From: Escherichia coli
GTDB lineage: Bacteria > Pseudomonadota > Gammaproteobacteria > Enterobacterales > Enterobacteriaceae
Assembly: GCF_001677475.2 (NCBI RefSeq)
Contig: NZ_CP015229.1
Reading direction: 5' to 3' (one strand)
Length of the DNA stretch: 64,000 nt
Shown here piece after piece: positions 1 to 41,394 of the stretch. Position numbers and translations under genes: made by a program. How positions within the stretch are numbered: the first letter of the stretch is position 1; the number at the start of each line of letters is the position of its first letter. The notes beneath the pieces are model-generated. The model did not search any database, was not told the origin of the DNA, and saw only the letters and a list, made by a program, of their open reading frames with translations.

Positions 1-289
1 GTGGCCACTGGCAGGATTTAATATGGCGCAACAGCCAGTCAGACAATGCACCAGCACCACCAGCAGCACGAATCACCCGTGCGTTACTGAAAAACGGCAG
101 CAATGTTTTGTCTTCCACCAGCGGCTGGCGAACGGCAGGAACGACCCCGGACGGCAGATTACGCATGCTTTTCGGTTCCGGCTCCACCAATACCCGGGTA
201 TTGTGGAATACCGGCATGGATTCACGGCCCGGCTTAACGATCACCAGCCCGAGTTCCGGTACCAGAACAGGTCGAAGTAATACCCGCAC
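1..289 (-). CDS. Partial ORF running off the left window edge (about 96 codons visible, possible GTG start near 289); hypothetical prophage protein
   Basis: Hand translation of the minus strand shows one frame open from about 289 to position 1 with protein-like composition; absent from the ORF track, probably because it is truncated. Function not recognised. Confidence 0.3.
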   Translation of the reverse strand, partial: MRVLLRPVLVPELGLVIVKPGRESMPVFHNTRVLVEPEPKSMRNLPSGVVPAVRQPLVEDKTLLPFFSNARVIRAAGGAGALSDWLLRHIKSCQWP

Positions 290-290
290 G

Positions 291-569
291 TTACCTCCAG
301 ATGCGTTGCTGGAATGTGCGAGACGGACGCGGTGGGCGCTCGGAGTACGGCAGCCTGACGTAGATTATCCAGAGACGATAATCGAGGCTGAGGGATTTCT
401 TAATCTCGTATCCACGCCTGCGGTAGTTCTGAATCAGCCATTTGGCCTGTTCTTCAGTGCATGGTTCATGCTGGAACCAGTCAGATTTGAATGTGAGAGA
501 ACGCCGCCCGTGCCTGCTGGCAAAGACGGCTGAATTATCGGAATTGTGTAGTCTGGAATTTTGCGCCAT
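291..569 (-). CDS. Hypothetical prophage protein (92 aa)
   Basis: ORF track entry; co-oriented and tightly packed with neighbouring minus-strand prophage genes; no family recognised. Confidence 0.35.
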   Translation of the reverse strand: MAQNSRLHNSDNSAVFASRHGRRSLTFKSDWFQHEPCTEEQAKWLIQNYRRRGYEIKKSLSLDYRLWIIYVRLPYSERPPRPSRTFQQRIWR

Positions 570-635
570 CGGCTTTCTCCGCTGGCACAGTGTTACTCAA
601 CAGGGGTTCAGCCCTGCGCTGAATTGTAGTTGAAT

Positions 636-899
636 TCACTCATATTCAAAAGCAGAAAAACCAGCCTTAAGCTCAGCTTCTTTCAGAGACTGCAATGATG
701 TGACAAATTCATTTTCACGCAAAATAAAACCATCCGTCACAAATCCATCCACAAAATAAATTAACGCAGCTCCACTCTTCCCTTGTTGAGACTGTAAACA
801 TTTAATACGGCAGTGACTGACAATAGCGCCATTCTCAACGCGCGCAGTGTAGAGGCCATCTTCACTAAAAATTTCACGTAATTCTTCGATTTTCATCAA
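636..899 (-). CDS. Hypothetical prophage protein (87 aa)
   Basis: ORF track entry; same orientation as the prophage late-early genes; no family recognised. Confidence 0.45.
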   Translation of the reverse strand: MMKIEELREIFSEDGLYTARVENGAIVSHCRIKCLQSQQGKSGAALIYFVDGFVTDGFILRENEFVTSLQSLKEAELKAGFSAFEYE

Positions 900-1049
900 C
901 AGAATCCTTCCAGATAAATAGCACTCCCCTGTTCGGGGTCCATCCCTCTTCTCCCTGCGCGCTAACTAAGTAATATGATTCTATTTACCCCAAACGCCCC
1001 CTCAAGAACCGCAACCAATGGAGTACACAAAAAGCTAATCAGCTACGCT

Positions 1050-1082
1050 ACGCAATAAAAAACCCGCCGAAGCGGGTTAAGT
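1050..1082 (-). terminator. Intrinsic terminator-like hairpin downstream of hok
   Basis: GC stem cccgcttcggcggg followed by a U-run when read on the minus strand. Confidence 0.5.
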
Positions 1083-1148
1083 GCGGGCGCGTTGAGGATG
1101 CCTGACACATCAGAGGTGGCGAGGGATTTCTCCCTCGCCAGGTCACTC

Positions 1149-1304
1149 TTACTCCTCAGATTCGTAAGCTGTGAAGACAGCGACCTCCGTCTGGCCGGTT
1201 CGGATTCGCACCTCGCAGAGGTCTTTCCTCGTTACCAGTGCCGTCACTATGACGGTTAAACAGATGACGATCAGGGCGATTAACATCGCCTTTTGCTGCT
1301 TCAT
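1149..1304 (-). CDS. hok: Hok/Gef-family type I toxin (51 aa membrane peptide)
   Basis: Translation MKQQKAMLIALIVICLTVIVTALVTRKDLCEVRIRTGQTEVAVFTAYESEE is near-identical in pattern to Hok/Gef proteins (single TM helix, conserved KDLCEV.IRTG..EVAVF.AYE). The 70-aa ORF track entry 1149..1361 is an upstream in-frame extension. Confidence 0.85.
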   Translation of the reverse strand: MKQQKAMLIALIVICLTVIVTALVTRKDLCEVRIRTGQTEVAVFTAYESEE

Positions 1305-1514
1305 AGCCTGCTTCTCCTTGCCTTTCGGCACGTAAGAGGCTAACCTACATGTGCAAAGCATGAAATTGGCCTCAGATTAATGTTAAGCGTCTTGCCGGAC
1401 GCGTAATGTTAACTGGGGCTTTTCTCTATCTGCCGTTGGTGTTCATGCCCGAGGCAGATAGCCTCAAGCACCCGCTGCAATTCTACTTAACTCTCCTTTT
1501 CCCGCAAACCGTTT

Positions 1515-1598
1515 TTATCCCCAGCGGCAAATCGAATACACCACCAGCGCCACCGCAAGTGCAATTCCTACCGTTGTGAATGCTTCAGGCCAGGTCAT
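1515..1598 (-). CDS. Small hydrophobic peptide (27 aa, MTWPEAFTTVGIALAVALVVYSICRWG)
   Basis: Its ATG overlaps the stop of the upstream 140-aa ORF in an ATGA arrangement; single predicted TM helix; below the ORF track size cut-off. Confidence 0.3.
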   Translation of the reverse strand: MTWPEAFTTVGIALAVALVVYSICRWG

Positions 1599-2017
1599 CG
1601 ATTCACCTCCTGCTCAATATTTTTAAGGTCATTTTCCGCATACAGTATTGCTGTCCTGGCTGCTCGTAACCGGGCTTTGGCATTTTTCTCTTCACGTTCA
1701 AGTTTTTCCACAGCTTCACGAAGAGCATCCCGCTTTGCATAGAGTGATTTAATCTCAGACACTATGTTTTCACCGTTTCTCGCACGGTCGAGAACAAGCT
1801 CGAACGGATCTAAAGCCAATCCGCATCGGTTACAGGTAATCGTACGATTCACTTCTGAAATTGTTGTACGGATATGCTGACAGCATTTTTGCTCGCCGCT
1901 TTTTCTGTCGGTTATCACAACGTTGAGAAGCCCTTCTTCCTCTGATTTTGGTTGCACAAGGGTGATAACATTGTCGATGTCATTTTTCATTAGCCCCCCA
2001 CTCTTGTGGTGATTCAT
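1595..2017 (-). CDS. Hypothetical prophage protein with a C-x2-C zinc-ribbon-like motif and a coiled-coil C-terminus
   Basis: ORF track entry; CCQH...CNRCG cysteine pairs; charged helical C-terminal half; a GGGGG Shine-Dalgarno precedes the internal MKNDIDN start. Confidence 0.5.
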   Translation of the reverse strand: MNHHKSGGLMKNDIDNVITLVQPKSEEEGLLNVVITDRKSGEQKCCQHIRTTISEVNRTITCNRCGLALDPFELVLDRARNGENIVSEIKSLYAKRDALREAVEKLEREEKNAKARLRAARTAILYAENDLKNIEQEVNR

Positions 2018-2190
2018 TCATCACCCCACTCATCACAATATGCTTCGACAGGTGTTTTTCCTGCTTCGTAGTCATCACGCCAGGCTTCAGCATCAACAGC
2101 ACTTCCACCACGTAACTCTGCATAGTCCATTAACAGTTCATGCCATTCTTCAAAACTGACGTTGTATTTAGTTGAACCAAAATCAGCCAT
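2014..2190 (-). CDS. Small hypothetical prophage protein (58 aa)
   Basis: Hand-found ORF MADFGSTKYNVSFEEWHELLMDYAELRGGSAVDAEAWRDDYEAGKTPVEAYCDEWGDE filling the gap between two track ORFs; its stop overlaps the next start. Confidence 0.3.
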   Translation of the reverse strand: MADFGSTKYNVSFEEWHELLMDYAELRGGSAVDAEAWRDDYEAGKTPVEAYCDEWGDE

Positions 2191-2365
2191 TTTGTTCTTC
2201 CTCTTCGTCTTTTATTGCGTGATATGAGTAATTGCAGTAGTTAAAGAAAATTTCTTTTGCTTCATCATGAATTTCATCAGGTGTTGCGTCATCGCCCACT
2301 TCGAATACATCCTCAAAATCTCCACCAGCTATTCCCGTTTCAATAATTATTTTGAACTTTCGCAT
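2183..2365 (-). CDS. Small acidic hypothetical prophage protein (about 60 aa from the internal start MRKFKII)
   Basis: ORF track 2183..2419; the internal start is preceded by a purine-rich Shine-Dalgarno. Confidence 0.4.
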   Translation of the reverse strand: MRKFKIIIETGIAGGDFEDVFEVGDDATPDEIHDEAKEIFFNYCNYSYHAIKDEEEEQNG

Positions 2366-2509
2366 TTCACTACCGCCCTTTCGGGCGGCCTCCTGATGAT
2401 TTGAGAGTGCAAAAATCACTCCGGTTAAGGATTAAATTTTATTTACAGAACTGAATTTAATTATTCAGATATACGTATCTGTAACCCTACGAACCTACTC
2501 ACTGGATGC

Positions 2510-2983
2510 CTATTTCATAAAAATAATCCAGTGAGTTTTATCGTTTTTTCCTGTTCGTTGACCGATAACAGGTTTTCTGTCGGTCAGTGCCAATATCTGG
2601 CGAACAGGTATTTGCGTTTCATTCCATTTGAAAATCAGAACGCCGTATGGCTGCAACACACGAAAGGCTTCTTTAAATCCCTGCCGCAAATCATCACGCC
2701 AGGTATCTTTATTTAGCCGTCCATATTTCTTTCCCATCCAGGCGTTATCACCAACACGCTCAAGATGCGGAGGGTCGAATACAACCATCGAAAAAGATGC
2801 GTCTGCAAATGGTAGTGCACGAAAATCTGCTATCAGGTCAGGGCTAATTATCAGGCGTCGTCCATCACATAATGTGTGCTCTTCTTTTCTGATATCGCTA
2901 AATATCGCCCGGTCGTCATTCTTATCGAACCAGAACATACGACTACCACAGGACATATCAAGAATGGTTGCCGATTCACTCAC
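2510..2983 (-). CDS. Small prophage DNA amino-methyltransferase (probable N6-adenine), orphan
   Basis: Motif I-like LDMSCGSR near the N-terminus and catalytic motif IV-like FDPPH about 55 residues later; no adjacent restriction endonuclease ORF. Confidence 0.7.
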   Translation of the reverse strand: MSESATILDMSCGSRMFWFDKNDDRAIFSDIRKEEHTLCDGRRLIISPDLIADFRALPFADASFSMVVFDPPHLERVGDNAWMGKKYGRLNKDTWRDDLRQGFKEAFRVLQPYGVLIFKWNETQIPVRQILALTDRKPVIGQRTGKNDKTHWIIFMK

Positions 2984-3203
2984 TGTTTACCTCCTGCAAC
3001 GCTACCCGGTACGCCTTCTTTATCCACGCTGTACTGCCATATAACTTCGTCTTCATAAAAAACACCCCTGCACGGCTCGCCGATATCCCCGGACAGGCTA
3101 ACAGCACTGCATCCACCACACGGTTATGCTTCCGGAACTCCATTACAGTACTGCTGATAACCACCTGTCCCACCGGGCCGTAATCCTGATACAGGATTTT
3201 CAC
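2976..3203 (-). CDS. Hypothetical prophage protein (75 aa)
   Basis: ORF track entry in a tightly packed minus-strand gene array. Confidence 0.35.
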   Translation of the reverse strand: MKILYQDYGPVGQVVISSTVMEFRKHNRVVDAVLLACPGISASRAGVFFMKTKLYGSTAWIKKAYRVALQEVNSE

Positions 3204-3454
3204 GCAGACACCCTCCTGTCGAAATAAACGTAGTTATTCACTGTGCGCAGCGGCATTCCAAATTTTCTGGCGATTTCTCTCCTGGACACGCCACGCTGAT
3301 GCAATTGTCGCGTCAGCTCAATATCACTCTGCGGATATTTTGCTGACTGGTGATAATCACCCCGTAACATCATACTAATACCCAGTTCCCGCGCTTTCGT
3401 TCTGACCGCCGCCTCACTACGGCCAATCAGACTGCCGATGCTTTTTACCTTCAT
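3200..3454 (-). CDS. Small helix-turn-helix protein (GcrA-like N-terminal motif), about 84 aa
   Basis: ORF track 3200..3601; probable start at the internal MKVKSIGSL; two HTH-like segments (SIGSLIGRSEAAVRTKARELGIS and SRREIARKFGMPLRTV). Confidence 0.45.
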   Translation of the reverse strand: MKVKSIGSLIGRSEAAVRTKARELGISMMLRGDYHQSAKYPQSDIELTRQLHQRGVSRREIARKFGMPLRTVNNYVYFDRRVSA

Positions 3455-3510
3455 TGTTCCCGCGCACTGCCGAAGAATAAGGATTTCAGCCCGCACCCAG
3501 CCACGCCATC

Positions 3511-4272
3511 TCACTTCACATCCTCTCTGGAACAATTCATCTGCCGTATAATATCCCGGTACTTGTTCAGCTCCCGCAGCGCGGCGCAGACACGCTCCCA
3601 CTTCTGGACATGGCTTTTCGCCCGACGCAATTCGCGGTTTGCTATATGCAGCGATGGTAAAATCAGGTCATCCCCTTGCGTTTCGGTGAGCGATGGTAAC
3701 GACTGCACCATGTCCGCCACAGTTTCTGTTTTAATATCTTCCTGTGTTGCAGCTTCCTGTACCGGTAACGCAACACCGGCTGGCTGAGGAAAGGCTTTAC
3801 CATCGGTTTCCGCTACCGATGCGGCTTTCAGCTCTGCTGGTAAATTATCTCCCGGCATGCAGTAGCGAAATTTACCGTTCTGGTTTACGCGTGCCAGCCG
3901 CCCCGTTGCGGTTACTACTGCCAGCGTGGAAGCAACCTTGCGAGTGCTGACACAGAACTTACCCGCCAGTTCCTCACACGTTTTAGCTCCCTCCTGACCG
4001 ATAAACTCAATCATCATGTCAGCGGTAACTTTTCGTTCGACCGCCCTGGTCAGCACATCCGGTACTTCAGATTGTGCTGGCTGCTCTTCGGTTACCCCGG
4101 ATTCACCTTCGCCAGCCAGAAACCAGGTGTGACCCGTTTTATCAACGACGCCATTTCTTTTCAGTTCCCACAGCTCGTTCAGCACTTCTTCACGACTGAT
4201 ATCAAGTCGCGCAGCCAGTTCTGTCGACGTGGCTTTCCCCATTGCTTTCAGTGCGTCAAAAACAGTCTCCAT
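3511..4272 (-). CDS. Hypothetical prophage protein with an N-terminal winged-helix-like domain (about 253 aa)
   Basis: ORF track 3511..4338; the probable start METVFDALK at 4272 avoids overlap with the upstream gene; N-terminal [27 protein letters not shown] resembles a wHTH. Confidence 0.5.
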
Positions 4273-4306
4273 TAAAATTTCCTCCCGGTAAAAATCACTT
4301 CTCAAC

Positions 4307-4972
4307 TCAAACAAAACCAGCCGTTTTCCGGCGTTCATACTCCTGTTTCAGCAACTCAATTGGCGTTGGTCCCGACGGGCGTTTGGGTGCCGCCAGTTGT
4401 CGCCGGACTGGCGGAATGCTCAGGCCATTACCAACATGCTTTGCCCATTTCGTCAGTTGCCGTTCTGCAAGCCGTTTTAACTCCCCTTCGGTCATCTGGC
4501 GCTCAATCCCCTTTGAACGCATCTCGAGGCAAATGTGATACAGCACAGGCTGAGACCACGGGTACTTATCACTTCCGTCGTATCGCCAGGACTCATTGCG
4601 CCAGCGGCGGTACTCCTCCATCACAGCATCCACCGTCAGACCGAATGGATTGGCTCCGCTTTCCGAAATCAGTGCCACAAACTCAGCCAGGTCCGGAGGC
4701 CATGTTTCACCCGCCCGGCAGCGGTCCATGCACTGGCGGCAGACCTGCCGGATTTGCTGCTCAGTCATCGCGCCAATCTGTGCAATCCAGAGCTTCGAAG
4801 GTGCGGCCCCGTTCTTCCGGGGCCAGCGGTTCGAATAAACCTCCCCCATGAGTTCCCACAGCTTCCAGGCCGTTTCCGTCGCTGATAAATCCGTTTTCAC
4901 GTTCCCACTGCTCACGTGCTGCCCGAATTTCCTGAACTGCCCGTGATGCGGTGCCACCTGGTGCTGCTGCAT
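4307..4972 (-). CDS. Lambda P-like replication protein (helicase loader); start uncertain
   Basis: C-terminal half aligns in pattern with lambda P ([28 protein letters not shown]) from memory. The ORF as listed overlaps the upstream gene by 212 bp; internal starts at about 4846 or 4768 are more likely. Confidence 0.55.
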
Positions 4973-5876
4973 GGTTTGCCCCCTTGCTGACTGGTTTAAC
5001 CTGTGCCCTGACGTGATTTACGTGACGGGCGAATTTCTGCTCCCACTGAACCTGCGTGAAAACTTTACCCTCCTCAGTCCAGTAATCCCTGAATGCGGCA
5101 AGTTCAGCAGGTGTAAATTCCGGCTCTGGCAGAGCCATCCCCCACAACGCAGCCCGTCGTCGAAAATCCCGTGACGGATACCAGCTATCGGTCATCGGAA
5201 ATTTTCCGATGGGTTCGTTCACGCCGTCCAGGAGCACGGGGGGGGTTGTCTGTAGCGACAAAACTCCCCGCTCACTGGTCGGAGCACTCTCACGTGCGTT
5301 ATGTGTGGGGTTTAGATCTTTGGGTTCCTTTGGGTTCCGTGATCCGTTTTTGGGTGTCTTTGATGGAAAATTTGGGTGTCTTTGGTTATTTTCCATGCAG
5401 CAAAGAGTTCCGTTTTTGGGGCTGTTTTGTGCTGAAACATAACCGTTTTCGGTACTGTTTTTATTAACAGCACCAATTTTACCCACCTTTAAAGACACCC
5501 GTTTTTGGGTGTATTCAGGCTCGGCAACACTTTCTTCTACACCGATAAGTCGGTACACCACAATTTGCTTTGTTCTGCCTTTTCTCTCACCGGTATCAAT
5601 AATTAACCCAATCTCCATCAGGTGTCGTAAGCTGTCCTGCACAGTCTTTTTGTTCAGTTCCGTTACTTCTGCCAGTGCAGATACAGACGGGTATGCACAC
5701 AAATCGGCACCGCACATATCAGCAAGCCAGGTCAATACTGACTTACTGGATGAACTGCCGGTTTTCACCTTTTTAGCCCACCGTAGTGCATCGATACTCA
5801 TACGAACCTCTGGCAGACATTTGTTTATCTGCAAAGTAATAATGATATTGCTGACGATACGCATGCTTGAAAGCAA
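4761..5876 (-). CDS. Prophage replication initiation protein (N-terminal HTH, C-terminal DnaT-like domain)
   Basis: N-terminal winged-helix-like region (SVSALAEVTELNKKTVQDSLRHLMEIGLI), low-complexity linker, C-terminal WYPSRDFRRR...ELAAFRDYW...WEQKF resembling DnaT/DUF1376-type phage replication proteins; probable true start near 5801 (MSIDALRW). Confidence 0.6.
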   Translation of the reverse strand: MLSSMRIVSNIIITLQINKCLPEVRMSIDALRWAKKVKTGSSSSKSVLTWLADMCGADLCAYPSVSALAEVTELNKKTVQDSLRHLMEIGLIIDTGERKGRTKQIVVYRLIGVEESVAEPEYTQKRVSLKVGKIGAVNKNSTENGYVSAQNSPKNGTLCCMENNQRHPNFPSKTPKNGSRNPKEPKDLNPTHNARESAPTSERGVLSLQTTPPVLLDGVNEPIGKFPMTDSWYPSRDFRRRAALWGMALPEPEFTPAELAAFRDYWTEEGKVFTQVQWEQKFARHVNHVRAQVKPVSKGANHAAAPGGTASRAVQEIRAAREQWERENGFISDGNGLEAVGTHGGGLFEPLAPEERGRTFEALDCTDWRDD

Positions 5877-6324
5877 TAGCTTTTTCTATAAGCTCGTCAG
5901 TCTCACGTTCCACAACAGATGGATCCGCAAAAAGCAGCCCGGACTCCACCACATCGCCATATTCTTTGTTTAACCCGGCGATCATGTACGTAATGCTTTT
6001 TCCGTCAGTAATTTCACAATACAACCTGAAATCGCTGATCCGGATAGCCTCCATAATTGCCGGAATCAGCGCCGTGAATTTTTCCCGCTTATCCCTGGTG
6101 TCGATAGCTTTCCAGCGTTCGAATATCTTCACCCGGTTAACGCCCAGCGCCCGTTGATCAACCTCGCCATCATTAAACGTGACGCGTTGAACATCGATGT
6201 TCGGGCGTTCTTTCAGAGCCCAGAATGCTTCCGTGATTAAAATAGTCGCCTGCTCCTGTGTCATTCCTGGTCGGCATACCCAGGCATCCAGAGCCTCACA
6301 AACCTGTTCAGGGGTGATTTTCAT
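5773..6324 (-). CDS. YdaT-like prophage regulatory protein (CII-position gene)
   Basis: Lies directly downstream of the cro-like gene; central segment REKFTALIPAIMEAIRISDFRL resembles the YdaT-family helix; call is by position and weak motif only. Confidence 0.45.
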   Translation of the reverse strand: MKITPEQVCEALDAWVCRPGMTQEQATILITEAFWALKERPNIDVQRVTFNDGEVDQRALGVNRVKIFERWKAIDTRDKREKFTALIPAIMEAIRISDFRLYCEITDGKSITYMIAGLNKEYGDVVESGLLFADPSVVERETDELIEKAIAFKHAYRQQYHYYFADKQMSARGSYEYRCTTVG

Positions 6325-6535
6325 TGTTCAACCGCCCCGCCCGCTTTGCCTTACGATATTCGTCATAAACTTTGGGGTCGTACTGAAGTTCCCCGCCGGA
6401 TGCCTCTTGCAGGCGCATCGCGCGACCTTCAGGAACCAGTTCCCCCCATGCAGCAATGCTTGCCAGCCTAACTCCTGCGGCATTGGCAAGCTTTGTTTTG
6501 CTGCCAAAAAACGCTATAGCATCAATTTTCAACAT
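6308..6535 (-). CDS. dicC: DicC-like Cro-type regulator
   Basis: 75-aa protein divergent from the DicA-like repressor across a 76-bp operator region; sequence pattern MLKIDAIAFFGSKTKLANAAGVRLASIAAWGE...EGRAMRLQEASGGELQYDPKVYDEY matches my recollection of DicC. Confidence 0.7.
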   Translation of the reverse strand: MLKIDAIAFFGSKTKLANAAGVRLASIAAWGELVPEGRAMRLQEASGGELQYDPKVYDEYRKAKRAGRLNNENHP

Positions 6536-6611
6536 ATCGAGTTCCTTAGATTTTCCTAAGGAAACTAGATCGTAGAGAAACCTAAGTCAATAAAAATTAG
6601 AATTCCCTAAT
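6536..6611. promoter_or_regulatory. Divergent operator/promoter region between the dicC-like and dicA-like genes
   Basis: Contains the inverted repeat CCTTAG-N6-CTAAGG and a further CCTAAG half-site; expected location of the immunity switch. Confidence 0.5.
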
Positions 6612-7019
6612 ATGAAAAACGAAACCTTCGGTGCTCGCCTCTTACATAGGCGTAAAAAATTAAAACTGTCTCAGGCCGCATTAGGTAAGCTGGTCAAAGT
6701 GGCTCACGTAACAATTTCTCAATGGGAAAGAGATGAAACACAGCCGGCGGGGAAAAGATTATTCGCACTGAGCCAAGCGCTTCAGTGCTCACCGACTTGG
6801 CTTCTTTTTGGGGATGAAGATAAACAACCAGGCGAACCGATCCCGGATAATCAGCCAGCCATTCTGACAGAAGATCAAAAAGAGTTACTTCAACTGTTCG
6901 ACGCACTGCCTGAGTCAGAGCAAAAGGCCCTGTTGTCAGAGATGCGTGCTCGAGTTGAAAATTTCAACAAACTTTTTGAAGAACTACTCAAAGCTCGCAA
7001 AAGAAGCGCAAACAAATAA
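6612..7019 (+). CDS. dicA: DicA-like prophage repressor (XRE-family HTH)
   Basis: 135 aa; strong pattern match to DicA as I recall it (LFALSQALQCSPTWLLFGDEDKQP, LFDALPESEQ, MRARVENFNKLFEELLKAR). Confidence 0.85.
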   Translation: MKNETFGARLLHRRKKLKLSQAALGKLVKVAHVTISQWERDETQPAGKRLFALSQALQCSPTWLLFGDEDKQPGEPIPDNQPAILTEDQKELLQLFDALPESEQKALLSEMRARVENFNKLFEELLKARKRSANK

Positions 7020-7029
7020 CCCCCTTTTT

Positions 7030-7150
7030 TCTCCACACCCTGTAATAAAAAGCACAAAATTTCAAACAATTGTGTTTTTTACATCAAAAAACTTAGGTTT
7101 TTCTACATAAACAGCTTGACCACATACCTTAGGTTATTCTAAATTTCATT
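7030..7150. promoter_or_regulatory. Putative second operator set and early promoter downstream of dicA
   Basis: Repeated motifs CTTAGGTTTTTCTAC and CCTTAGGTTATTCTAA share the CTTAGG half-site with the dicC-dicA intergenic region; AT-rich. Confidence 0.4.
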
Positions 7151-7221
7151 CATCAAGACACCGCACGGTGTTCTCAGCAAACAGTTCCGCTACCCCAGCG
7201 TTAAGGGGAAATGAGGTCAGC

Positions 7222-7377
7222 ATGGATACTATCGATCTTGGTAACAACGAATCTCTGGTGTGCGGCGTGTTCCCAAACCAGGACGGCACATTCACCGCGA
7301 TGACGTATACCAGAAGCAAAACGTTTAAAACCGAAGCTGGCGCGCGTCGCTGGCTGGAAAGAAATTCAGGTGAGTGA
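7222..7377 (+). CDS. ydfA: YdfA-like small protein (51 aa)
   Basis: Size and position (first gene of the dicB operon) match Qin ydfA; the ORF track 7168..7377 includes an upstream extension. Confidence 0.65.
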   Translation: MDTIDLGNNESLVCGVFPNQDGTFTAMTYTRSKTFKTEAGARRWLERNSGE

Positions 7378-7378
7378 T

Positions 7379-7507
7379 ATGGATTTCGACGCAATCATGG
7401 AAAAGGCTTACGAAGAATACTTCGAAGGCCTTGCCGAAGGCGAAGAAGCTCTCAGCTTCAGTGAGTTTAAACAGACGCTTTCCAGTTCGGCAAAATCTAA
7501 CGACTGA
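7379..7507 (+). CDS. ydfB: YdfB-like small acidic protein (42 aa)
   Basis: Hand-translated MDFDAIMEKAYEEYFEGLAEGEEALSFSEFKQTLSSSAKSND; the ATG lies 1 nt after the ydfA stop; size and position match Qin ydfB. Confidence 0.55.
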   Translation: MDFDAIMEKAYEEYFEGLAEGEEALSFSEFKQTLSSSAKSND

Positions 7508-7536
7508 TAAGAGAAGCGGCACCGCGAGGAATCAGT

Positions 7537-7752
7537 ATGCAGAAACGAGAACCCGTCATCATCGCACCAGACTATACCGAGGATGAAATTTACGAATGGA
7601 TGTGCGGAAAGATACGCGCCATTAATTACCTGAAGCAGGCCGCTGACTACAAAGAGCGCCTCTCTAAAGAACTGGTGTCAGCGGAGCAGGATATTACCAC
7701 TCTGGCAAAAAGCGCGGCATTAAACGTTTCGCGAGTGACTGAAAACTACTGA
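7537..7752 (+). CDS. ydfC: YdfC-like protein (71 aa)
   Basis: ORF track; size and position match Qin ydfC. Confidence 0.6.
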   Translation: MQKREPVIIAPDYTEDEIYEWMCGKIRAINYLKQAADYKERLSKELVSAEQDITTLAKSAALNVSRVTENY

Positions 7753-7841
7753 CCACTGAGCTCAAGTAGTTCTCCACAGATGAAGTGCGTGCGCCGGACA
7801 CGGATAAACCTCCGGCATGCTCTTTAACAATCTGGATATTC

Positions 7842-8288
7842 CTAACCACAAAGAAATCGCATCAATTTGGATTTTGTGGGCAACTTCTCTTGTTGTTCGA
7901 TGGAGACGCCCATTTTGATCTGTGTTTTTAAGATCGCAATATCTTTAAGTGATGACCAAATATGACCATCTGTTTTTTCCAGAATTTTTAACTGAATTTT
8001 CAATTCCGAATCAGAATATTTTTCTGCATCATCAAAAAGCTGCAAATATTCTGCGGATTTTCTCATGGCATTACCTGACTTTTGTCCGAATCCATAAATC
8101 GTTTGGACGGTTGCGATCACAACAATAAAAACGCCAGAAATTTCCGGAATGAATCCGCCAATGACAGATGAACCGAGGATAACACTCACTACTGAGAGAA
8201 GTTTATCGAGACGACCAGTCGCTACAGAAAATAGTTGCTCAAGAAAATAGCCATATAAAATTCTGTCAAGAATATCATCCCGGTCCAT
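7842..8288 (-). CDS. Two-TM membrane protein encoded antisense inside the dicBF operon (148 aa); candidate superinfection-exclusion or abortive-infection protein
   Basis: ORF track; AT-rich codon usage distinct from its flanks; AGGTGA Shine-Dalgarno 7 nt upstream of the ATG; two adjacent hydrophobic helices (about residues 35 to 75) and a charged C-terminal domain; sits in extra DNA absent from the K-12 Qin ydfC-dicF interval as I recall it. Confidence 0.6.
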   Translation of the reverse strand: MDRDDILDRILYGYFLEQLFSVATGRLDKLLSVVSVILGSSVIGGFIPEISGVFIVVIATVQTIYGFGQKSGNAMRKSAEYLQLFDDAEKYSDSELKIQLKILEKTDGHIWSSLKDIAILKTQIKMGVSIEQQEKLPTKSKLMRFLCG

Positions 8289-8746
8289 ACATCATCACCT
8301 GCTTGTTTGGTTGTTGCTGTTCCCCCTCTCCTCCGAAGGAGTTGGAGATGGTTTTGGTCGAATGTTTTTCTCTGGTATGTGATCCCAGACTGTTTTATGC
8401 GTCGAATTGCCACCACCTGCTTGTGCTCTTTGCTCTGTCATATGATTTCCTTGGATCGTTGGGGATATCCAGATTATACAGATTTCCTGTCGTTGGGGAA
8501 TGACGGAAACCACCTCGCCTGACGTGGTTAAAAGCAGGCACACAACACGAAAGCGCACGGCGAAGTTCGTCTCACTGTACGGTGTCGGTAAATTTAATTC
8601 GACCGTGCGCTTCCGGTTGTGGCACTCCGCGAAATGACGCGGCGGTAAGTATGGCGGGGTTATTCTTTCCCCGTTGAGGACACCGGGTTGTCAGGTTGAC
8701 CATACGCTTAAGTGACAACCCCGCTGCAACGCCCTCTGTTATCAAT

Positions 8747-8799
8747 ATTCTGGTGACATTTGGCGGTATCAGTTTTACTCCGTGACTGCTCTGCCGCCC
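8747..8799 (+). ncRNA. dicF: DicF small RNA
   Basis: The sequence tTCTGGTGACaTTTGGCGGTATCAGTTTTACTCCGTGACTGCTCTGCCGCCCTTTTT matches the 53-nt DicF sequence from memory with about two substitutions, ends in a GC hairpin plus U-run, and lies about 185 bp upstream of dicB as in Qin. Confidence 0.65.
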
Positions 8800-8983
8800 T
8801 TTTTAAAAGTGAATTTTGTGATGCGGTGAATGCGGCTCAGCGCACGCGGAACAGTTAAATCGGTAAAGAGGTCATTTGCTGAGTAACGGGAATGCTCTGT
8901 ATCCGGCGTTAATTGTTAACTGGTTAACGTCACCTGGAGGCACCAGGCACTGCATCACAAAATTCATTGTTGAGGACGCGATA

Positions 8984-9172
8984 ATGGAAAAGTTATCATG
9001 CAATGCCAGTACGTCTGAACTTCGTTTCGAAATTGGCGTTATCACTGGAGAAAAAACATTTATTGAAGACGCCATTAAGCAGAGAAAACTCGAGCAGGAC
9101 CTGTTAAATGAAGTATGCATTCCTTCAATGCTGGCTCGTCTGGACCTGCTGCAAAAAGGATATAAACAATGA
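8984..9172 (+). CDS. dicB: DicB-like cell division inhibitor (62 aa)
   Basis: Internal start MEKLSCNASTSELRFEIGVITGEKTFIEDAIKQRKLEQDLLNEVCIPSMLARLDLLQKGYKQ aligns along its length with K-12 DicB (FEIGV, EDAI.KRK, SMLARL); the ORF track 8876..9172 is an upstream extension. Confidence 0.85.
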   Translation: MEKLSCNASTSELRFEIGVITGEKTFIEDAIKQRKLEQDLLNEVCIPSMLARLDLLQKGYKQ

Positions 9173-9360
9173 ATACAACATTTGCACTCGTTCTGACAGT
9201 TTATCTTGTTTCCGGCGAATCTCTTGAGCTGGTGACTGGCTTATACGGTTCAATGAAAGAATGCATGGCTGCCGCAGCAGAACAAAAAATTCCCGGTAAC
9301 TGTTATCCGGTAGATAAAGCTACTCACACTAATAATAACGAAATACCGGCGGGACTTTAA
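9169..9360 (+). CDS. ydfD: YdfD-like small protein (63 aa) with an N-terminal hydrophobic segment
   Basis: Immediately follows dicB with a 4-bp overlap, as ydfD does in Qin; 63 aa with a signal/TM-like N-terminus. Confidence 0.6.
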   Translation: MNTTFALVLTVYLVSGESLELVTGLYGSMKECMAAAAEQKIPGNCYPVDKATHTNNNEIPAGL

Positions 9361-9453
9361 AACAGCACCGAAATAAACATCCGGTTTCATTTTTATATGC
9401 CAGCAATGGCAGGGATTTGTTCACCCTTAAATCTGTAATGAGGTTAAAACAAA

Positions 9454-11925
9454 ATGAATAAAGTCTTTATTTGCGCAGCTATTCCGGACGAACAGGCAAT
9501 AAAGGAAGAAGGTGCAGTCGCTGTGGCCTCTGCCATTGAAGCCGGTGACGAGCGCCGCGCCCGTGCCAAATTTACCTGGCAATTCCTGGAGCAATATCCG
9601 GCTGCTCAGGACTGCGCTTATAAATTTCTTGTCTGTGAGGATAAACCCGGCATGCCCCGCCCTGCCATTGACTCCTGGGATACCGAATATATGCAGGAAA
9701 ACCGCTGGGATGAGGAATGCGCTTCCTTTGTTCCGGTCGAACCAGAATCCGATCCGATGAACGTCAATTTTGACAAGCTGTCCCCTGAAGTACAGAACGC
9801 GGTCCTGATTAAGTTCGGTACATGTGAAAACATCACCGTTGATATGGCGATTGACGCTCAGGAATTACTGCAGGAAGACGTGGCTACCTTTGACGGGCAT
9901 ATCGTTGAAGCACTGATGAAAACGCCTGAAATTAACGCTATGTATCCGGAACGCAAACTGTTCGCTATCGGATGGGTTAAACACAAATGTAAGCCGGGTA
10001 CCAAATGGACCGAAATTCAGGCTGAATTACGTAACTGGAAAAAACGGCAGGACGCAGAGCGCAAAGAGACTGGAAAATACACGTCTGTTGTTGATCTTGC
10101 CCGCGCCAGAGTCAACCGACATAGCACTGAAAACTCAGCAGAAAAAATCAATTCTGTCACTGCCGCCATTCGTCGCGAATACAAGCAGACCTGGAAAACA
10201 CTGGATAAAGAACTGGCCTATGCTCTCTGGCCTGGTGACATTGATGTCCGGAACATTGACGGCAGCATCCATAGATGGGCAAAAAATGAAGTTATCGACA
10301 AGGATCGCGAAGACTGGAAACGCATCTCCGCATCAATGCGCAAACAGCCTGATGCGATTCGCTACAGCCGTCAGACGATTTTTGGCCTTGTTCGTGAACG
10401 TCCGGTCGACATTCACAAAGACCCCGTGGCACTGAATAAATACATCACTGAATACCTTGCGACAAAGGGCGTGTTTGAAGATGAAGAAGAAGATCAGAGC
10501 GTTGTTGATGTTCTCCAGTCGTCAGCATCACAAACTGATGCAGTGGAAACTGAAGTACCTGATACCCAAAAAAATGAAAGCGCGCTGGAAGATGAATCAT
10601 CTGTAGAGCGTGAGGGGCCGTTCTACTTCCTCTTCAGCGATAAGGATGGAGAAAAATACGGTCGCGCAAACAAACTTTCAGGTCTGAATAAGGCGCTCGC
10701 TGCAGGGGCTACTGAAATCACGAAAGAAGAATATTTTGCTCGAAAAAACGGTACATACTCAGGTTCACAACAAAATACTGGTGCATCTGACACGACCGCA
10801 CAACCAGAGCCGGTAAAAGTTACTGCTGACGAAGTGAACAAAATTATGCAGGCAGCCAATATCAGCCTGCCTGACGCCAGTCAGTTGCTCGCTGCATCAC
10901 GTGGTGAATTTGTTGCAGGGATTAGCGACCCGAATGATCTGAAATGGATTAAAGGGATCCAGACCCGCGATTCTATGAACCAAAACCAGCAAGAAACGGA
11001 ACAGAACGACCAGAAAGCGGAACAAAGCAGCCCAAATGCGCAACAAAACGAGCCAGAAACGAAACAATCCGAACCAGTAGTGCAACAGGAACCGGAAAAA
11101 GTCTGCACCGCCTGCGGTCAGAGCGGTGGCGGCAACTGCCCCGATTGTGGCGCGGTCATGGGCAACGCAACATACCAGGAAACATTCGATGAAGAGAATC
11201 AGGTTGAAGCTCAGGAGAATGATCCGGAGGAAATGGAAGGCGCTGAACATCCACACAAGGAGAACACTGGCGGCAATCAGCATCACGCCAGCGATAGTGA
11301 AACTGGCGAGACGGCAGATCCCTTAATTACGGTGAACAGTCATCACGTTATCACATCCACCAGCAGGACGTGTGACCATCTAATGATCGACCTTGAAGCC
11401 ATGGGAATAAATCCTGATGCCCCGATTATCTCAATAGGTGCAATATTTTTCGATCCGCAAACCGGAGATATGGGACCGGAATTTAGTAAGACTGTCGATC
11501 TGGAAACTGCTGGCGGAGTCATTGATCGGGACGCCATTAAATGGTGGCTTAAGCAATCACGCGAAGCGCAATCTGCCATTATGACCGATGAAATCCCGTT
11601 AGATGATGCACTGTTACAATTGCGGGAATTTATCGACGAAAACTCCGGTGAATTTTTTGTTCAGGTCTGGGGAAATGGAGCAAACTTCGACAACACGATT
11701 TTGCGCCGTTCATACGAACGGCAGGGGATCCCCTGCCCGTGGCGTTACTACAACGATCGCGATGTGCGCACAATCGTTGAGCTGGGGAAAGCCATAGACT
11801 TCGATGCCAGAACTGCTATCCCATTCGAAGGTGAGCGCCATAATGCACTTGATGACGCTCGTTACCAGGCAAAATACGTTTCAGCTATCTGGCAAAAACT
11901 GATCCCGAGTCAGGCTGATTTTTAA
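9454..11925 (+). CDS. Large prophage exonuclease in the RecE position (823 aa) with a C-terminal DEDDh-type 3-prime-5-prime exonuclease domain
   Basis: C-terminal motifs MIDLEAMG (Exo I), WGNGANFDNTIL (Exo II) and HNALDDARYQAKY (Exo III); central low-complexity Q/E-rich linker with C-x2-C...C-x2-C; occupies the ydfE/recE position between dicB-ydfD and xis-int. Confidence 0.75.
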   Translation: MNKVFICAAIPDEQAIKEEGAVAVASAIEAGDERRARAKFTWQFLEQYPAAQDCAYKFLVCEDKPGMPRPAIDSWDTEYMQENRWDEECASFVPVEPESDPMNVNFDKLSPEVQNAVLIKFGTCENITVDMAIDAQELLQEDVATFDGHIVEALMKTPEINAMYPERKLFAIGWVKHKCKPGTKWTEIQAELRNWKKRQDAERKETGKYTSVVDLARARVNRHSTENSAEKINSVTAAIRREYKQTWKTLDKELAYALWPGDIDVRNIDGSIHRWAKNEVIDKDREDWKRISASMRKQPDAIRYSRQTIFGLVRERPVDIHKDPVALNKYITEYLATKGVFEDEEEDQSVVDVLQSSASQTDAVETEVPDTQKNESALEDESSVEREGPFYFLFSDKDGEKYGRANKLSGLNKALAAGATEITKEEYFARKNGTYSGSQQNTGASDTTAQPEPVKVTADEVNKIMQAANISLPDASQLLAASRGEFVAGISDPNDLKWIKGIQTRDSMNQNQQETEQNDQKAEQSSPNAQQNEPETKQSEPVVQQEPEKVCTACGQSGGGNCPDCGAVMGNATYQETFDEENQVEAQENDPEEMEGAEHPHKENTGGNQHHASDSETGETADPLITVNSHHVITSTSRTCDHLMIDLEAMGINPDAPIISIGAIFFDPQTGDMGPEFSKTVDLETAGGVIDRDAIKWWLKQSREAQSAIMTDEIPLDDALLQLREFIDENSGEFFVQVWGNGANFDNTILRRSYERQGIPCPWRYYNDRDVRTIVELGKAIDFDARTAIPFEGERHNALDDARYQAKYVSAIWQKLIPSQADF

Positions 11926-11977
11926 TGTTCAACCCTAATTGCCGCTAACCGTATATAGTTAGCGGCGGTTATGAGAT

Positions 11978-12187
11978 ATGGCTATGAGCAGCTTATTTTT
12001 AACCGAAGATGAATTGCTAATATTAACGGGCTGCAAATATGCAAGCCACCAGCGAAAATGGTTAATGGAAAACGGGCTTCCGTTCTATACCAATCGTAGT
12101 GGCAAACCGATTGTCAGCCGGGATCTATTTACCTGCAATAAAACTTTACCACCACGCGAGGTAGAGCCGAATTTTGGTGCAATCTGA
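11978..12187 (+). CDS. Excisionase-like small DNA-binding protein
   Basis: 69-aa ORF immediately upstream of and overlapping the integrase start; the position is typical of xis. Confidence 0.5.
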   Translation: MAMSSLFLTEDELLILTGCKYASHQRKWLMENGLPFYTNRSGKPIVSRDLFTCNKTLPPREVEPNFGAI

Positions 12188-13212
12188 TGGGAAGACGAAG
12201 GAAAAATCCTGAACACGAAAAATTACCTCCAAATGTATACCCAAATAAATATAGTTATGTATGGAAACCAACATCCAGAGAATCTGTCACACTAACCGCC
12301 ATCAAGGATGGTTTAGCTGCTTTATGGAAAAAGTATGAGGAAACTGTAAATAATCGCGATCGCGCAATGACATTCGGTCGCTTGTGGGAAAAATTCCTCG
12401 CCAGCGCCTATTACAGTGACCTCAGTCCAAGAACACAAAAAGATTATCTGCAACATCAAAAAAAGTTGCTTGCCGTATTCGGTAAGGTGCCGGCAGATTC
12501 CATAAAACCAGAACACATCCGTCGATACATGGACAAGAGAGGGGAACAGAGTAAAACGCAAGCCAACCATGAAAAAAGCAGTATGTCCCGCGTTTACAAT
12601 TGGGGGTATGAGCGAGGGTACGTGAAGGGTAACCCATGTGCAGGTGTAAGTAAATTCAAGGCCAAAAACCGCGAACGATATGTAACCGACAAAGAATACC
12701 AGGCAGTATTAAGTGTTGCACCTCTTCCTGTTTTTATCGCAATGGAAATTGCCTATCTGTGTGCAGCGAGGGTTTCCGATGTGTTATCACTGAAATGGGA
12801 GCAGATTGGAAACGACGGGATCTTTATCCAGCAAGGGAAAACAGGGAAAAAACAGATAAAAGCATGGAGTCCACGATTACAGGCGGCGATCGAAAAAGCA
12901 AAACAGTTACCAACATCTGCCTATGTAATCAGCAATCAATATGGCAACCGATATATGTACAAAGGTTTTAACGAAATGTGGGTAGAAGCAAGAAATCACG
13001 CAGGCAAAATTTCAGGTATTTTAACCGACTTCACCTTTCATGATCTGAAGGCGAAAGGAATTTCAGACTATGAAGGAAGCAGCCGGGATAAGCAACTTTT
13101 CTCTGGTCACAAAACCGAAGGGCAAGTGCTAATCTATGACAGAAAGGTTAAAGTTTCACCAACACTTGATGTCCCGTTACCTGATAATATTCCAAGAAAA
13201 TATTCCAAGTAA
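12187..13212 (+). CDS. int: Tyrosine-type phage integrase
   Basis: 341 aa; C-terminal catalytic region with H-x-x-R (FTFHDLKAKG) and the tyrosine motif (VLIYDRK); ends about 50 bp from the 3-prime end of tRNA-Ser. Confidence 0.9.
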   Translation: MGRRRKNPEHEKLPPNVYPNKYSYVWKPTSRESVTLTAIKDGLAALWKKYEETVNNRDRAMTFGRLWEKFLASAYYSDLSPRTQKDYLQHQKKLLAVFGKVPADSIKPEHIRRYMDKRGEQSKTQANHEKSSMSRVYNWGYERGYVKGNPCAGVSKFKAKNRERYVTDKEYQAVLSVAPLPVFIAMEIAYLCAARVSDVLSLKWEQIGNDGIFIQQGKTGKKQIKAWSPRLQAAIEKAKQLPTSAYVISNQYGNRYMYKGFNEMWVEARNHAGKISGILTDFTFHDLKAKGISDYEGSSRDKQLFSGHKTEGQVLIYDRKVKVSPTLDVPLPDNIPRKYSK

Positions 13213-13264
13213 TTCCAAGTGTGATTTTTGTCACTGACTTAATGATGTGTAAGTGATTGAATTT

Positions 13265-13354
13265 TGGCGGAGAGAGGGGGATTTGAACCCCCGGTGGAGT
13301 TGCCCCCACTCCGGTTTTCGAGACCGGTCCGTTCAGCCGCTCCGGCATCTCTCC
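13265..13354 (-). tRNA. serU: tRNA-Ser (anticodon CGA), serU-like
   Basis: Reverse complement reads GGAGAGATGCCGGAGCGGCTGAACGGACCGGTCTCGAAAACCGGAGTGGGGGCAACTCCACCGGGGGTTCAAATCCCCCTCTCTCCGCCA, a 90-nt class II tRNA with a CGA anticodon and long variable arm. Confidence 0.9.
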
Positions 13355-13447
13355 GTTCAGATGGTTGCCATGATGCCAGGAAATTTGGCATTTTAACAGT
13401 CCCTGTCCGTGCAATTTTGTTCAAGTGACGAGTTTGCGAGCAAAACG

Positions 13448-14345: not shown

Positions 14346-14421
14346 TCCTCTGTAGTTCAGTCGGTAGAACGGCGGACTGTTAATCCGTATGTCACTGGTT
14401 CGAGTCCAGTCAGAGGAGCCA
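14346..14421 (+). tRNA. asnT: tRNA-Asn (GUU)
   Basis: TCCTCTGTAGTTCAGTCGGTAGAACGGCGGACTGTTAATCCGTATGTCACTGGTTCGAGTCCAGTCAGAGGAGCCA; canonical E. coli tRNA-Asn with encoded CCA; preceded by the GC-rich discriminator taatatgcgccccgttcac. Confidence 0.95.
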
Positions 14422-29071: not shown

Positions 29072-29147
29072 TGGCTCCTCTGACTGGACTCGAACCAGTG
29101 ACATACGGATTAACAGTCCGCCGTTCTACCGACTGAACTACAGAGGA
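29072..29147 (-). tRNA. asnW: tRNA-Asn (GUU)
   Basis: Exact reverse complement of the 76-nt asnT sequence. Confidence 0.95.
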
Positions 29148-30895: not shown

Positions 30896-30971
30896 TCCTC
30901 TGTAGTTCAGTCGGTAGAACGGCGGACTGTTAATCCGTATGTCACTGGTTCGAGTCCAGTCAGAGGAGCCA
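30896..30971 (+). tRNA. asnU: tRNA-Asn (GUU)
   Basis: Identical 76-nt tRNA-Asn sequence. Confidence 0.95.
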
Positions 30972-35720: not shown

Positions 35721-35796
35721 TCCTCTGTAGTTCAGTCGGTAGAACGGCGGACTGTTAATCCGTATGTCACTGGTTCGAGTCCAGTCAGAGGAGCCA
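35721..35796 (+). tRNA. asnV: tRNA-Asn (GUU)
   Basis: Identical 76-nt tRNA-Asn sequence; same upstream discriminator as asnT. Confidence 0.95.
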
Positions 35797-39959: not shown

Positions 39960-40190
39960 AGACGCGCCTGTACTCTACCTGACGCTTCCGGGCAACCCAC
40001 TTCCCACCGAAGTTGTTGGTATTGACTGACTGGCTGGTCTTCTGGCTTAGCGTCATCCTCACCCGACCTTCCCAATCTCGCGATCAGTGGCATTTTCGGG
40101 TTTGTCAGCATTACAGCAGCGGGGGCTGCGAGGGATTTTCACCCTCTTCCCAGGCACAAATGTGCCACACCTGTCAGCGTATGTTATGAG
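39960..40190 (-). promoter_or_regulatory. Cobalamin (B12) riboswitch in the cob operon leader
   Basis: The minus strand reads ...GGGAAGAGGGTGAAAATCCCTCGCAGCCCCCGCTGCTGTAATG...GCCACTG...GGGAAGGTCGGGTGAGG..., matching the conserved core and the B12 box (GCCACTG) of the cobalamin riboswitch; located between pocR and the first cob-strand ORF as in Salmonella. Confidence 0.8.
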
Positions 40191-41192: not shown

Positions 41193-41394
41193 GATAAAAC
41201 CTCCCAGTTAATTTATTGTTATAGCAAAACAATTGTTTTACATTTAATCTTCACATCATCCTTGATGATTTACTGACGAGAAGCACAAAGGACAATAACA
41301 AAAGCCTCCGTGAAGCGGGAGACTTTTTAATAAGTTCGGAAAGCAGATCACAAACAGTAAAAAAATAAACGTTTATAACTGCCAGATTATTTCG

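Follow-up and report, generated by a model that had tools for sequence, protein, structure and literature searches.

A dicF-dicB-ydfD operon in a lambda-like prophage at serU of Escherichia coli, and the helices of its non-coding RNA

The window studied here (the whole 64,000-nucleotide stretch of E. coli DNA that was analysed) carries what is, by its sequence, a genuine and apparently intact dicF-dicB-ydfD operon, in a lambda-like prophage at serU (Table 1). The locus is already known: such copies are common and have been described, and a near-identical serU locus is present in RefSeq with dicB annotated. An earlier, sequence-only reading of this DNA had noticed the module and had proposed that the whole arrangement of the Qin prophage was present and intact at a different attachment site, and that a stem just upstream of DicF could be its RNase III processing site. 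Below we report how the RNA and protein genes compare with those of K-12, which helix fits the RNase III cuts reported for DicF, and how the non-coding part of the operon is conserved.

Table 1. Features of the dic region and of the serU end of the prophage (positions in the window)
Feature	Position	Strand	Basis
dicC (Cro-like, 75 aa)	6308-6535	-	NCBIfam DicC 167.9 bits vs 130; Pfam P22_Cro; 84% to K-12
dicA (CI-like repressor, 135 aa)	6612-7019	+	NCBIfam DicA 237 bits vs 101, profile 1-135/135; 62% to K-12
dicBp-like promoter, TTGACC-18 nt-TAAATT	7116-7145	+	Promoter scan; overlapped by TTAGGTTnTTCTA operator-like repeats
ydfA (51 aa, DUF1391)	7222-7377	+	Pfam 100.8 bits; 94% to K-12 YdfA
ydfB (42 aa)	7379-7507	+	95% to K-12 YdfB; phrog_2061
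ydfC (71 aa)	7537-7752	+	57% to K-12 YdfC; phrog_1744
148-aa gene	7842-8288	-	ORF; phrog_6315 (function unknown)
Leader of 190-nt DicF precursor	8610-8746	+	~97% identical to K-12; 5' limit inferred from the 190-nt species
DicF sRNA (53 nt)	8747-8799; U-run 8800-8804	+	Rfam RF00039, K-12 alignment, fold
Structured dicF-dicB spacer	8809-8967	+	Closing helix, inverted repeat I1, RNAalifold
dicB (62 aa)	8984-9172	+	Pfam DicB PF05358, NCBIfam NF049927
ydfD-like (63 aa, DUF1482)	9169-9360	+	Pfam PF07358, K-12 YdfD comparison
YdfE-type exonuclease, full-length (823 aa)	9454-11925	+	K-12 ydfE, Pfam domain, phrog_2082 exonuclease
xis (DUF4224)	11978-12187	+	Pfam
Tyrosine integrase (341 aa)	12187-13212	+	Pfam
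tRNA-Ser(CGA), serU	13265-13354	-	ARAGORN, Rfam tRNA

DicF sits between ydfC and dicB, inside the dicB operon. When the whole window was scanned with Rfam cmscan at gathering thresholds, which is the check that the sequence-only reading had suggested, RF00039 was called on the + strand at 8748-8799; its 77.0 bits exceed the gathering score of 48 (E 2.9e-15), and the covariance-model alignment is full-length (model positions 1-52/52). That reading had described about two substitutions relative to DicF and a terminal hairpin with a U-run, and both details were correct: the alignment with K-12 Qin that places the 53-nt RNA shows exactly two substitutions with respect to K-12 dicF, T1A and G12A, and the 3' end consists of a hairpin (8762-8768/8793-8799) followed by TTTTT, identical to K-12. 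The predicted fold has an energy of -15.9 kcal/mol, equal to that of the K-12 fold. The ftsZ-pairing part of the RNA, which is its 3' half, is also unchanged from K-12, and the DicF-ftsZ duplex predicted by RNAduplex has an energy of -36.6 kcal/mol here vs -38.5 kcal/mol for the K-12 allele, both computed with the K-12 ftsZ leader, the host ftsZ lying outside the window. A12 recurs as a minority allele, in 15 of the 125 DicF copies among the fetched loci; the Rfam consensus base at this position is A. We considered a pairing between the DicF 5' segment GGUGACGUU and the spacer segment AACGUCACC (I5), which has no mismatch when position 12 is the common G, but set it aside as position 12 does not covary, A12 standing opposite a spacer C in 14 loci.

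The two proteins encoded downstream of DicF also turned out as first read, namely a DicB homologue at the expected spacing followed by a YdfD-like small protein. DicB matches its Pfam family over the full profile (1-62/62) with 130.4 bits vs a cut-off of 27, and the NCBIfam family with 123 bits vs a cut-off of 100; compared with K-12 DicB, as had been proposed for this 62-aa product, it is 55% identical. The gap between dicF and dicB measures 184 nt here vs 174 nt in K-12, and dicB is preceded by a GAGGA Shine-Dalgarno sequence at 8972-8976. The YdfD-like protein scores 69 bits vs a cut-off of 25 for DUF1482 and has 63% identity to K-12 YdfD, the hydrophobic N-terminal segment FALVLTVYLV being part of the match; the start codon of its gene and the stop codon of dicB overlap (ATGA, 9169-9172), in K-12 as well as here. 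At 55% and 63% identity to the characterized K-12 proteins, an activity equal to theirs is an assumption for both products. The K-12 ydfD annotation reads "lysis protein"; a published paper describes YdfD in the same terms (PMC8835842).

On the other side of the operon, dicA and dicC form a divergent pair of a CI-like and a Cro-like gene, both scoring above their NCBIfam cut-offs. Past dicA lies a promoter-like site that can be aligned, with its -35 hexamer kept, to the intergenic region between dicA and ydfA of K-12, and by this homology we infer that it corresponds to dicBp. The flanking TTAG...CTAA operator-like repeats, in turn, differ both from those of K-12 and from those of the E. coli GB089 prophage. 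Together with the 62% identity of DicA to its K-12 counterpart, these different repeats suggest a different immunity specificity. Downstream of the ydfD-like gene, the 823-aa protein is 82% identical over residues 1-257 to what the ydfE pseudogene of K-12 encodes, and its C-terminal part holds an Rv2179c-like 3'-5' exoribonuclease domain (221 bits); on this comparison, the gene is the form of ydfE that lacks the IS2 insertion of Qin. Directly past int, the end of the prophage abuts the 3' end of tRNA-Ser(CGA). At the GB089 locus, mtfA and tRNA-Asn come next, which is the serU neighbourhood. The prophage runs past the left end of the window, with replication genes and hok/sok at 1-6000.

How far this region reproduces Qin can be judged gene by gene. 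Gene order, strands and overlaps are shared with K-12 Qin (dicC/dicA/ydfABC-dicF-dicB-ydfD-ydfE), and identity runs at about 93-97% both across the region of the 190-nt precursor and in the 5' UTR of dicB. The prophage described here, however, is attached at serU, whereas the end of Qin adjoins ynfP/rspB, and its integrase is unrelated to that of Qin (22% identity in a partial alignment). DicA, YdfC, DicB and YdfD are diverged to the extent given above and in Table 1, the operators at dicBp differ, Qin lacks the 148-aa gene found here between ydfC and dicF, and ydfE encodes an intact 823-aa protein in place of the IS2-truncated pseudogene of Qin. The claim that the whole Qin arrangement is present, intact, at another site thus stands as to gene order, intact reading frames and serU, but not as to an insert of about 800 bp, the divergent DicA and operators, and the full-length ydfE.

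Much closer relatives are available. The serU prophages of E. coli GB089, 09-00049, RM9088 and OkiPb01715 (RefSeq) are 99.0-99.5% identical to the window over 92-93% of 6200-13400 (99.5% over 92% for GB089), and share the same genes, the 148-aa insert and the tRNA-Ser junction. They differ in a few respects: the dicA/dicBp segment of the GB089-type prophages is not that of the window, and the GB089 record marks its integrase gene as carrying a frameshift, in contrast to the 341-aa reading frame here. In the GB089 record dicB is annotated but DicF is not. More broadly, dicBF was reported in several prophage contexts, with multiple copies in E. coli O157:H7 (CP-933M/O/P) (PMC5069750), and phages such as Tritos and mEp460 carry dicBF in other backbones, with phage matches 91-92% identical and no difference in kind; in our comparison the phage genomes Tritos and mEp460_ev081 carry dicB, and the Tritos record annotates DicF as well. 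Of 5426 complete E. coli genomes, 4743 have a dicF region; the median number of places in a genome is 2 and the maximum 10. A scan of genome contigs for the DicF core returned 2 contigs, both of them metagenome bins, and so yielded no diversity across species.

Two doubts about whether this operon could work at all were weighed. That the region is a chance resemblance, or a decayed and non-functional remnant, has no argument in its favour beyond the frequent decay of prophage genes in general, and we give it practically no credence: the E-value of the DicF match rules out chance for the RNA, every protein matches its family over its full length, and no frameshifts or internal stops were found. 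The second doubt concerns the segment 7724-8529 (~800 bp), which has no K-12 counterpart by BLAST and holds the 148-aa gene, convergent with ydfC and opposite to the operon. The product of this gene has no Pfam or NCBIfam match and only a weak SLATT-type hint from PADLOC (E 0.019). An insert of this length with a convergent gene could reduce read-through from dicBp, and in a stronger form of this argument the module would be uncoupled from dicBp altogether, with transcription blocked or dampened by the insert and DicF, DicB and YdfD either silent or expressed from another start. The rarity of the insert (91 of the 5426 complete E. coli genomes), the orientation of the gene against the operon, and two weak terminator-like hairpins on the + strand of the insert (8040-8056 and 8331-8347) all speak in favour of such uncoupling. 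The terminator-like sites of the region, however, number 7 against a shuffled expectation of 4.0 +/- 1.9, which is not above it, and none lies in the gap between ydfC and the 148-aa gene; the scan for promoters and terminators found no convincing terminator from ydfC to dicF and no promoter-like site on the + strand at 8289-8600 from which another start could be made. The downstream reading frames are moreover intact, and the dicF block is ~97% conserved. We therefore regard uncoupling as unlikely, and read-through from dicBp as plausible given the lack of a convincing terminator and of a + strand promoter just upstream of dicF.

The stem proposed as the RNase III site has to be weighed against the ends that were mapped for DicF. 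RNase III is needed for the 5' end of the 190-nt species, and RNase E for that of the 53-nt species (Ragunathan et al. 2023, PMC10448788), and read-through transcripts are cut by RNase III to give the 3' end of a 72-nt DicF (Balasubramanian et al. 2016, PMC5069750; 2022 review, PMC9438474). We transferred these ends to the window by species length and K-12 alignment, which puts the RNase III 5' end at ~8610, the RNase E cut at 8746/8747 and the RNase III 3' end at ~8818; the first of these positions derives solely from the 190-nt length (~137 nt upstream of mature DicF), and a local hairpin near it folds no better than shuffled sequence (z -0.5). A long-range pairing, 8604-8611 with 8839-8846 (I3), was tried as the 5' RNase III site and rejected: it has 8 bp only, which is the chance expectation, and both arms are invariant. 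The I3 elements lie 1.4 kb apart in P7.

The stem-loop at 8683-8723 itself is real. Its two arms, GGGTTGTCA at 8685-8693 and TGACAACCC at 8713-8721, are perfect inverted repeats of 9 bp, and 4 inner pairs bring the total to 13. The hairpin has a folding energy of -14.9 kcal/mol (z -2.0) and is placed inside the 190-nt species, 25 nt before the RNase E site at the 5' end of DicF. A lone 9-bp stem is within chance expectation for 64 kb; this one stands out by being identical in K-12 and nearly invariant across 66 distinct versions, with 96.8% of cells paired. Its perfect pairing, position and conservation are what would recommend it as the RNase III site releasing DicF. That role is nonetheless very unlikely: the RNase III products imply ends at ~8610 and ~8818, both outside the stem, so that no mapped RNase III end matches it, and the mature 5' end of DicF is a product of RNase E. 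Substrates of RNase III in E. coli typically span about two helical turns (a duplex of about 20 bp), and a stem of 9 perfect and 4 inner pairs is far shorter than that. A single pair is changed at both of its positions, from T-A to C-G in P1 and P7, and this count was reached by 256 of 500 shuffles of an alignment in which most leader copies are 96-98% identical. We regard it as a structural element kept within the 190-nt precursor: its sequence is conserved, the hairpin probably folds in the RNA, and it may serve in stabilizing the 190-nt species or in positioning RNase E. The leader has a second hairpin, 8656-8659 with 8669-8672. We also asked for a leader of the C4 antisense type (as in P1 c4-icd-ant), but found no C4 match in 7700-9500 even at E up to 10; C4/isrK matches do occur in an Stx2c locus, elsewhere and on the other strand.

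A better candidate for an RNase III substrate than the upstream stem is found on the other side of DicF. The arms 8805-8828 and 8948-8971 of the dicF-dicB spacer are 88% complementary over 24 nt, and RNAalifold on 45 distinct spacer versions retains a 19-pair helix, 8809-8828/8948-8967, with 99.2% of cells paired in that alignment. Three of its pairs are changed on both sides, a number reached by only 3 of 500 shuffles, and sliding the partners by 1-3 columns leaves at most 56% of cells paired. The 3' end inferred for the 72-nt species (8818) lies midway along the 5' arm, and the dicB Shine-Dalgarno sequence begins a few bases past the 3' arm. On these comparative grounds, RNase III probably cuts the 19-bp helix to form the 3' end of the 72-nt DicF, and, given where 8818 and the Shine-Dalgarno sequence lie, a cut there would both make the longer DicF and trim the dicB leader. 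The spacer shares an outer helix and a CACCUGGAGGCACCAGG hairpin with the STnc100 family (RF02076); sub-threshold matches to that family in the spacers of P7 and of the window score 43, 37.8 and 31.7 bits vs a gathering score of 47, the last being the value for the window, which is not a member.

The sequence features, family memberships, conservation and long helix described here are all seen directly in the window and its relatives. For conservation we compared 127 loci, made up of K-12, GB089, IMG/VR contigs with a DicF core and three phages. Across these, identity to the window is mostly 96-98% for the leader, 95-100% for DicF and 85-89% for the spacer, as compared with ~72-78% in most loci for the DNA of dicB and ydfD, and in several loci the sequence diverges fully just past the 3' arm of the long helix, where another gene comes next. 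Given the higher identity of leader, DicF and spacer and this divergence past the 3' arm, no unit of the operon is more strongly conserved than the non-coding block.

Parts of the block also recur in other settings. In Stx2c-converting phages the leader core (~8616-8738) is 89% identical and is followed by a hairpin and U-run that resemble the DicF terminator, with a different 5' single-stranded part (L126:2501-2675); Rfam did not call this hairpin DicF at E up to 0.01. In P1 and P7 a leader core 75-80% identical to that of the window stands at the opening of the dam-ban operon, directly after dam and, in P7, also directly after the Op(ban) operators of the annotation; a GCCCA...TGGGC terminator comes next, and the spacer element stands upstream of tciA/terB in both phages. 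We take the recurrences in the Stx2c phages and in P1/P7 as leads, not as results, for the idea that the ~380-nt block (8596-8976: leader, DicF and spacer) is a self-contained and mobile RNA cassette, conserved above the flanking protein genes and with sub-modules reused in phage early operons, an idea that we put forward tentatively and would at present sooner doubt than accept. If true, it would point to a family of small-RNA cassettes in phages that share one processing scaffold and into which different targeting segments can be exchanged.

The account that we favour, and hold to be very probable, is that a lambdoid prophage at serU has here its early-left ("PL-like") operon, repressed by DicA, with DicF processed from polycistronic RNA. 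In it, the promoter, the DicA repression, the processing sites and all activities are taken by homology from K-12 Qin, and the position of the operon would be analogous to that of the lambda PL operon with kil. In the lysogen, DicA, as the CI analogue, would repress dicBp and dicC. Upon derepression, a polycistronic RNA would be made that runs through ydfA, ydfB, ydfC, the antisense of the 148-aa gene, dicF, dicB, ydfD and the exonuclease gene. Transcripts that end at the DicF terminator (8799-8804) would be trimmed by RNase III at ~8610 to a stable 190-nt species, from which an RNase E cut at 8746/8747 would release the 53-nt DicF, while in read-through RNA the spacer helix would be cut by RNase III to give the 72-nt DicF and leave a short leader on the dicB mRNA. 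By analogy with K-12, DicF is predicted to pair, via Hfq, with the ribosome-binding region of ftsZ and thus block its translation, and with other mRNAs; DicB would bind MinC, so that Z-ring formation is blocked. The ydfD-like gene would be translationally coupled to dicB and encode a small membrane lysis protein. The activities of DicF, DicB and YdfD are drawn from work in K-12 (PMC10448788, PMC5069750, PMC6832061).

With a locus that is already known, the finding is of use in two ways. One is annotation, DicF being unmarked in the GB089-type RefSeq record. The other is the anatomy of the RNA, that is, which helix fits the RNase III cuts that were reported, and the place of the non-coding block as the most conserved part of the operon.

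Across the loci compared, the non-coding block at 8596-8976 retains about 85-98% identity, and the ends of this RNA block are the places where mosaic boundaries fall. The adjoining dicB and ydfD genes (8984-9360) show about 72-78% DNA identity across loci, and their products share 55-63% protein identity with those of K-12. The spacer between dicF and dicB is closed by a 19-bp helix, in which 8809-8828 pairs with 8948-8967, and this pairing is backed by covariation. The 5' arm of the helix lies at the expected place of the reported 72-nt DicF 3' end, the dicB Shine-Dalgarno sequence comes after the 3' arm, and the element enclosed by the helix gives a sub-threshold match to STnc100.

Both the core of the leader, the non-coding stretch 5' of DicF, and the spacer element recur in the dam-ban operon of phages P1 and P7, where the leader core sits directly 3' of dam and is followed by a terminator, while the spacer element is found immediately upstream of terB/tciA. 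In P7, annotated Op(ban) operators immediately precede the leader core. The DicF leader is also present, at 89% identity, in the Stx2c-converting phage Stx2c_PV98-693 (L126:2501-2675); the small hairpin and U-run that come after it there, GGCGGTACCAG...CTGGTACCGC TATTTTT, differ from those of DicF. The 5' segment of this small hairpin RNA is other than that of DicF, and Rfam does not call it DicF; it could be a DicF-like sRNA whose targeting part differs.

Between ydfC and dicF, the dicB operon contains an insert of ~800 bp (7724-8529) that is rare among E. coli genomes (91 of 5426). Its 148-aa gene had no match in either Pfam or NCBIfam and belongs to the family phrog_6315, with no more than a weak SLATT-type hint (E 0.019).

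Features of the window and of the P1 and P7 dam-ban operons
Feature	Coordinates	Strand	Remarks
148-aa gene of insert	7842-8288	minus	ORF, oriented opposite to dicB operon
ydfE-type protein, 823 aa	9454-11925		intact
tRNA-Asn(GTT), four copies	14346-14421, 29072-29147, 30896-30971, 35721-35796
Cobalamin riboswitch	40015-40189	minus	109.5 bits; host part of window
sRNA STnc230	41253-41336		76.3 bits; host part of window
Leader core/spacer element, P1	L125:2501-2595
Leader core/spacer element, P7	L127:1092-1189, L127:2501-2616

The same prophage also carries a hok/sok type I toxin-antitoxin locus on the minus strand (1152-1473), whose sok scores 112.8 bits in Rfam and whose HokD is 98% identical to that of K-12. 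In the host DNA past serU, the four tRNA-Asn(GTT) genes are identical to one another.

The 823-aa protein shows ydfE in its undisrupted form: the product of the K-12 ydfE pseudogene is an 82% match to its N-terminal 257 residues, and the intact protein carries an Rv2179c-like 3'-5' exoribonuclease domain at its C-terminus. At 7040-7150, a dicBp-like promoter is surrounded by operator-like repeats, TTAGGTTnTTCTA, which are unlike those at dicBp of K-12, and unlike those of the GB089 prophage as well, even though the latter is otherwise 99.5% identical. The DicA proteins of the window and of K-12 are 62% identical. Judging from these repeats and from the DicA identity, the prophage is probably of a different immunity type.
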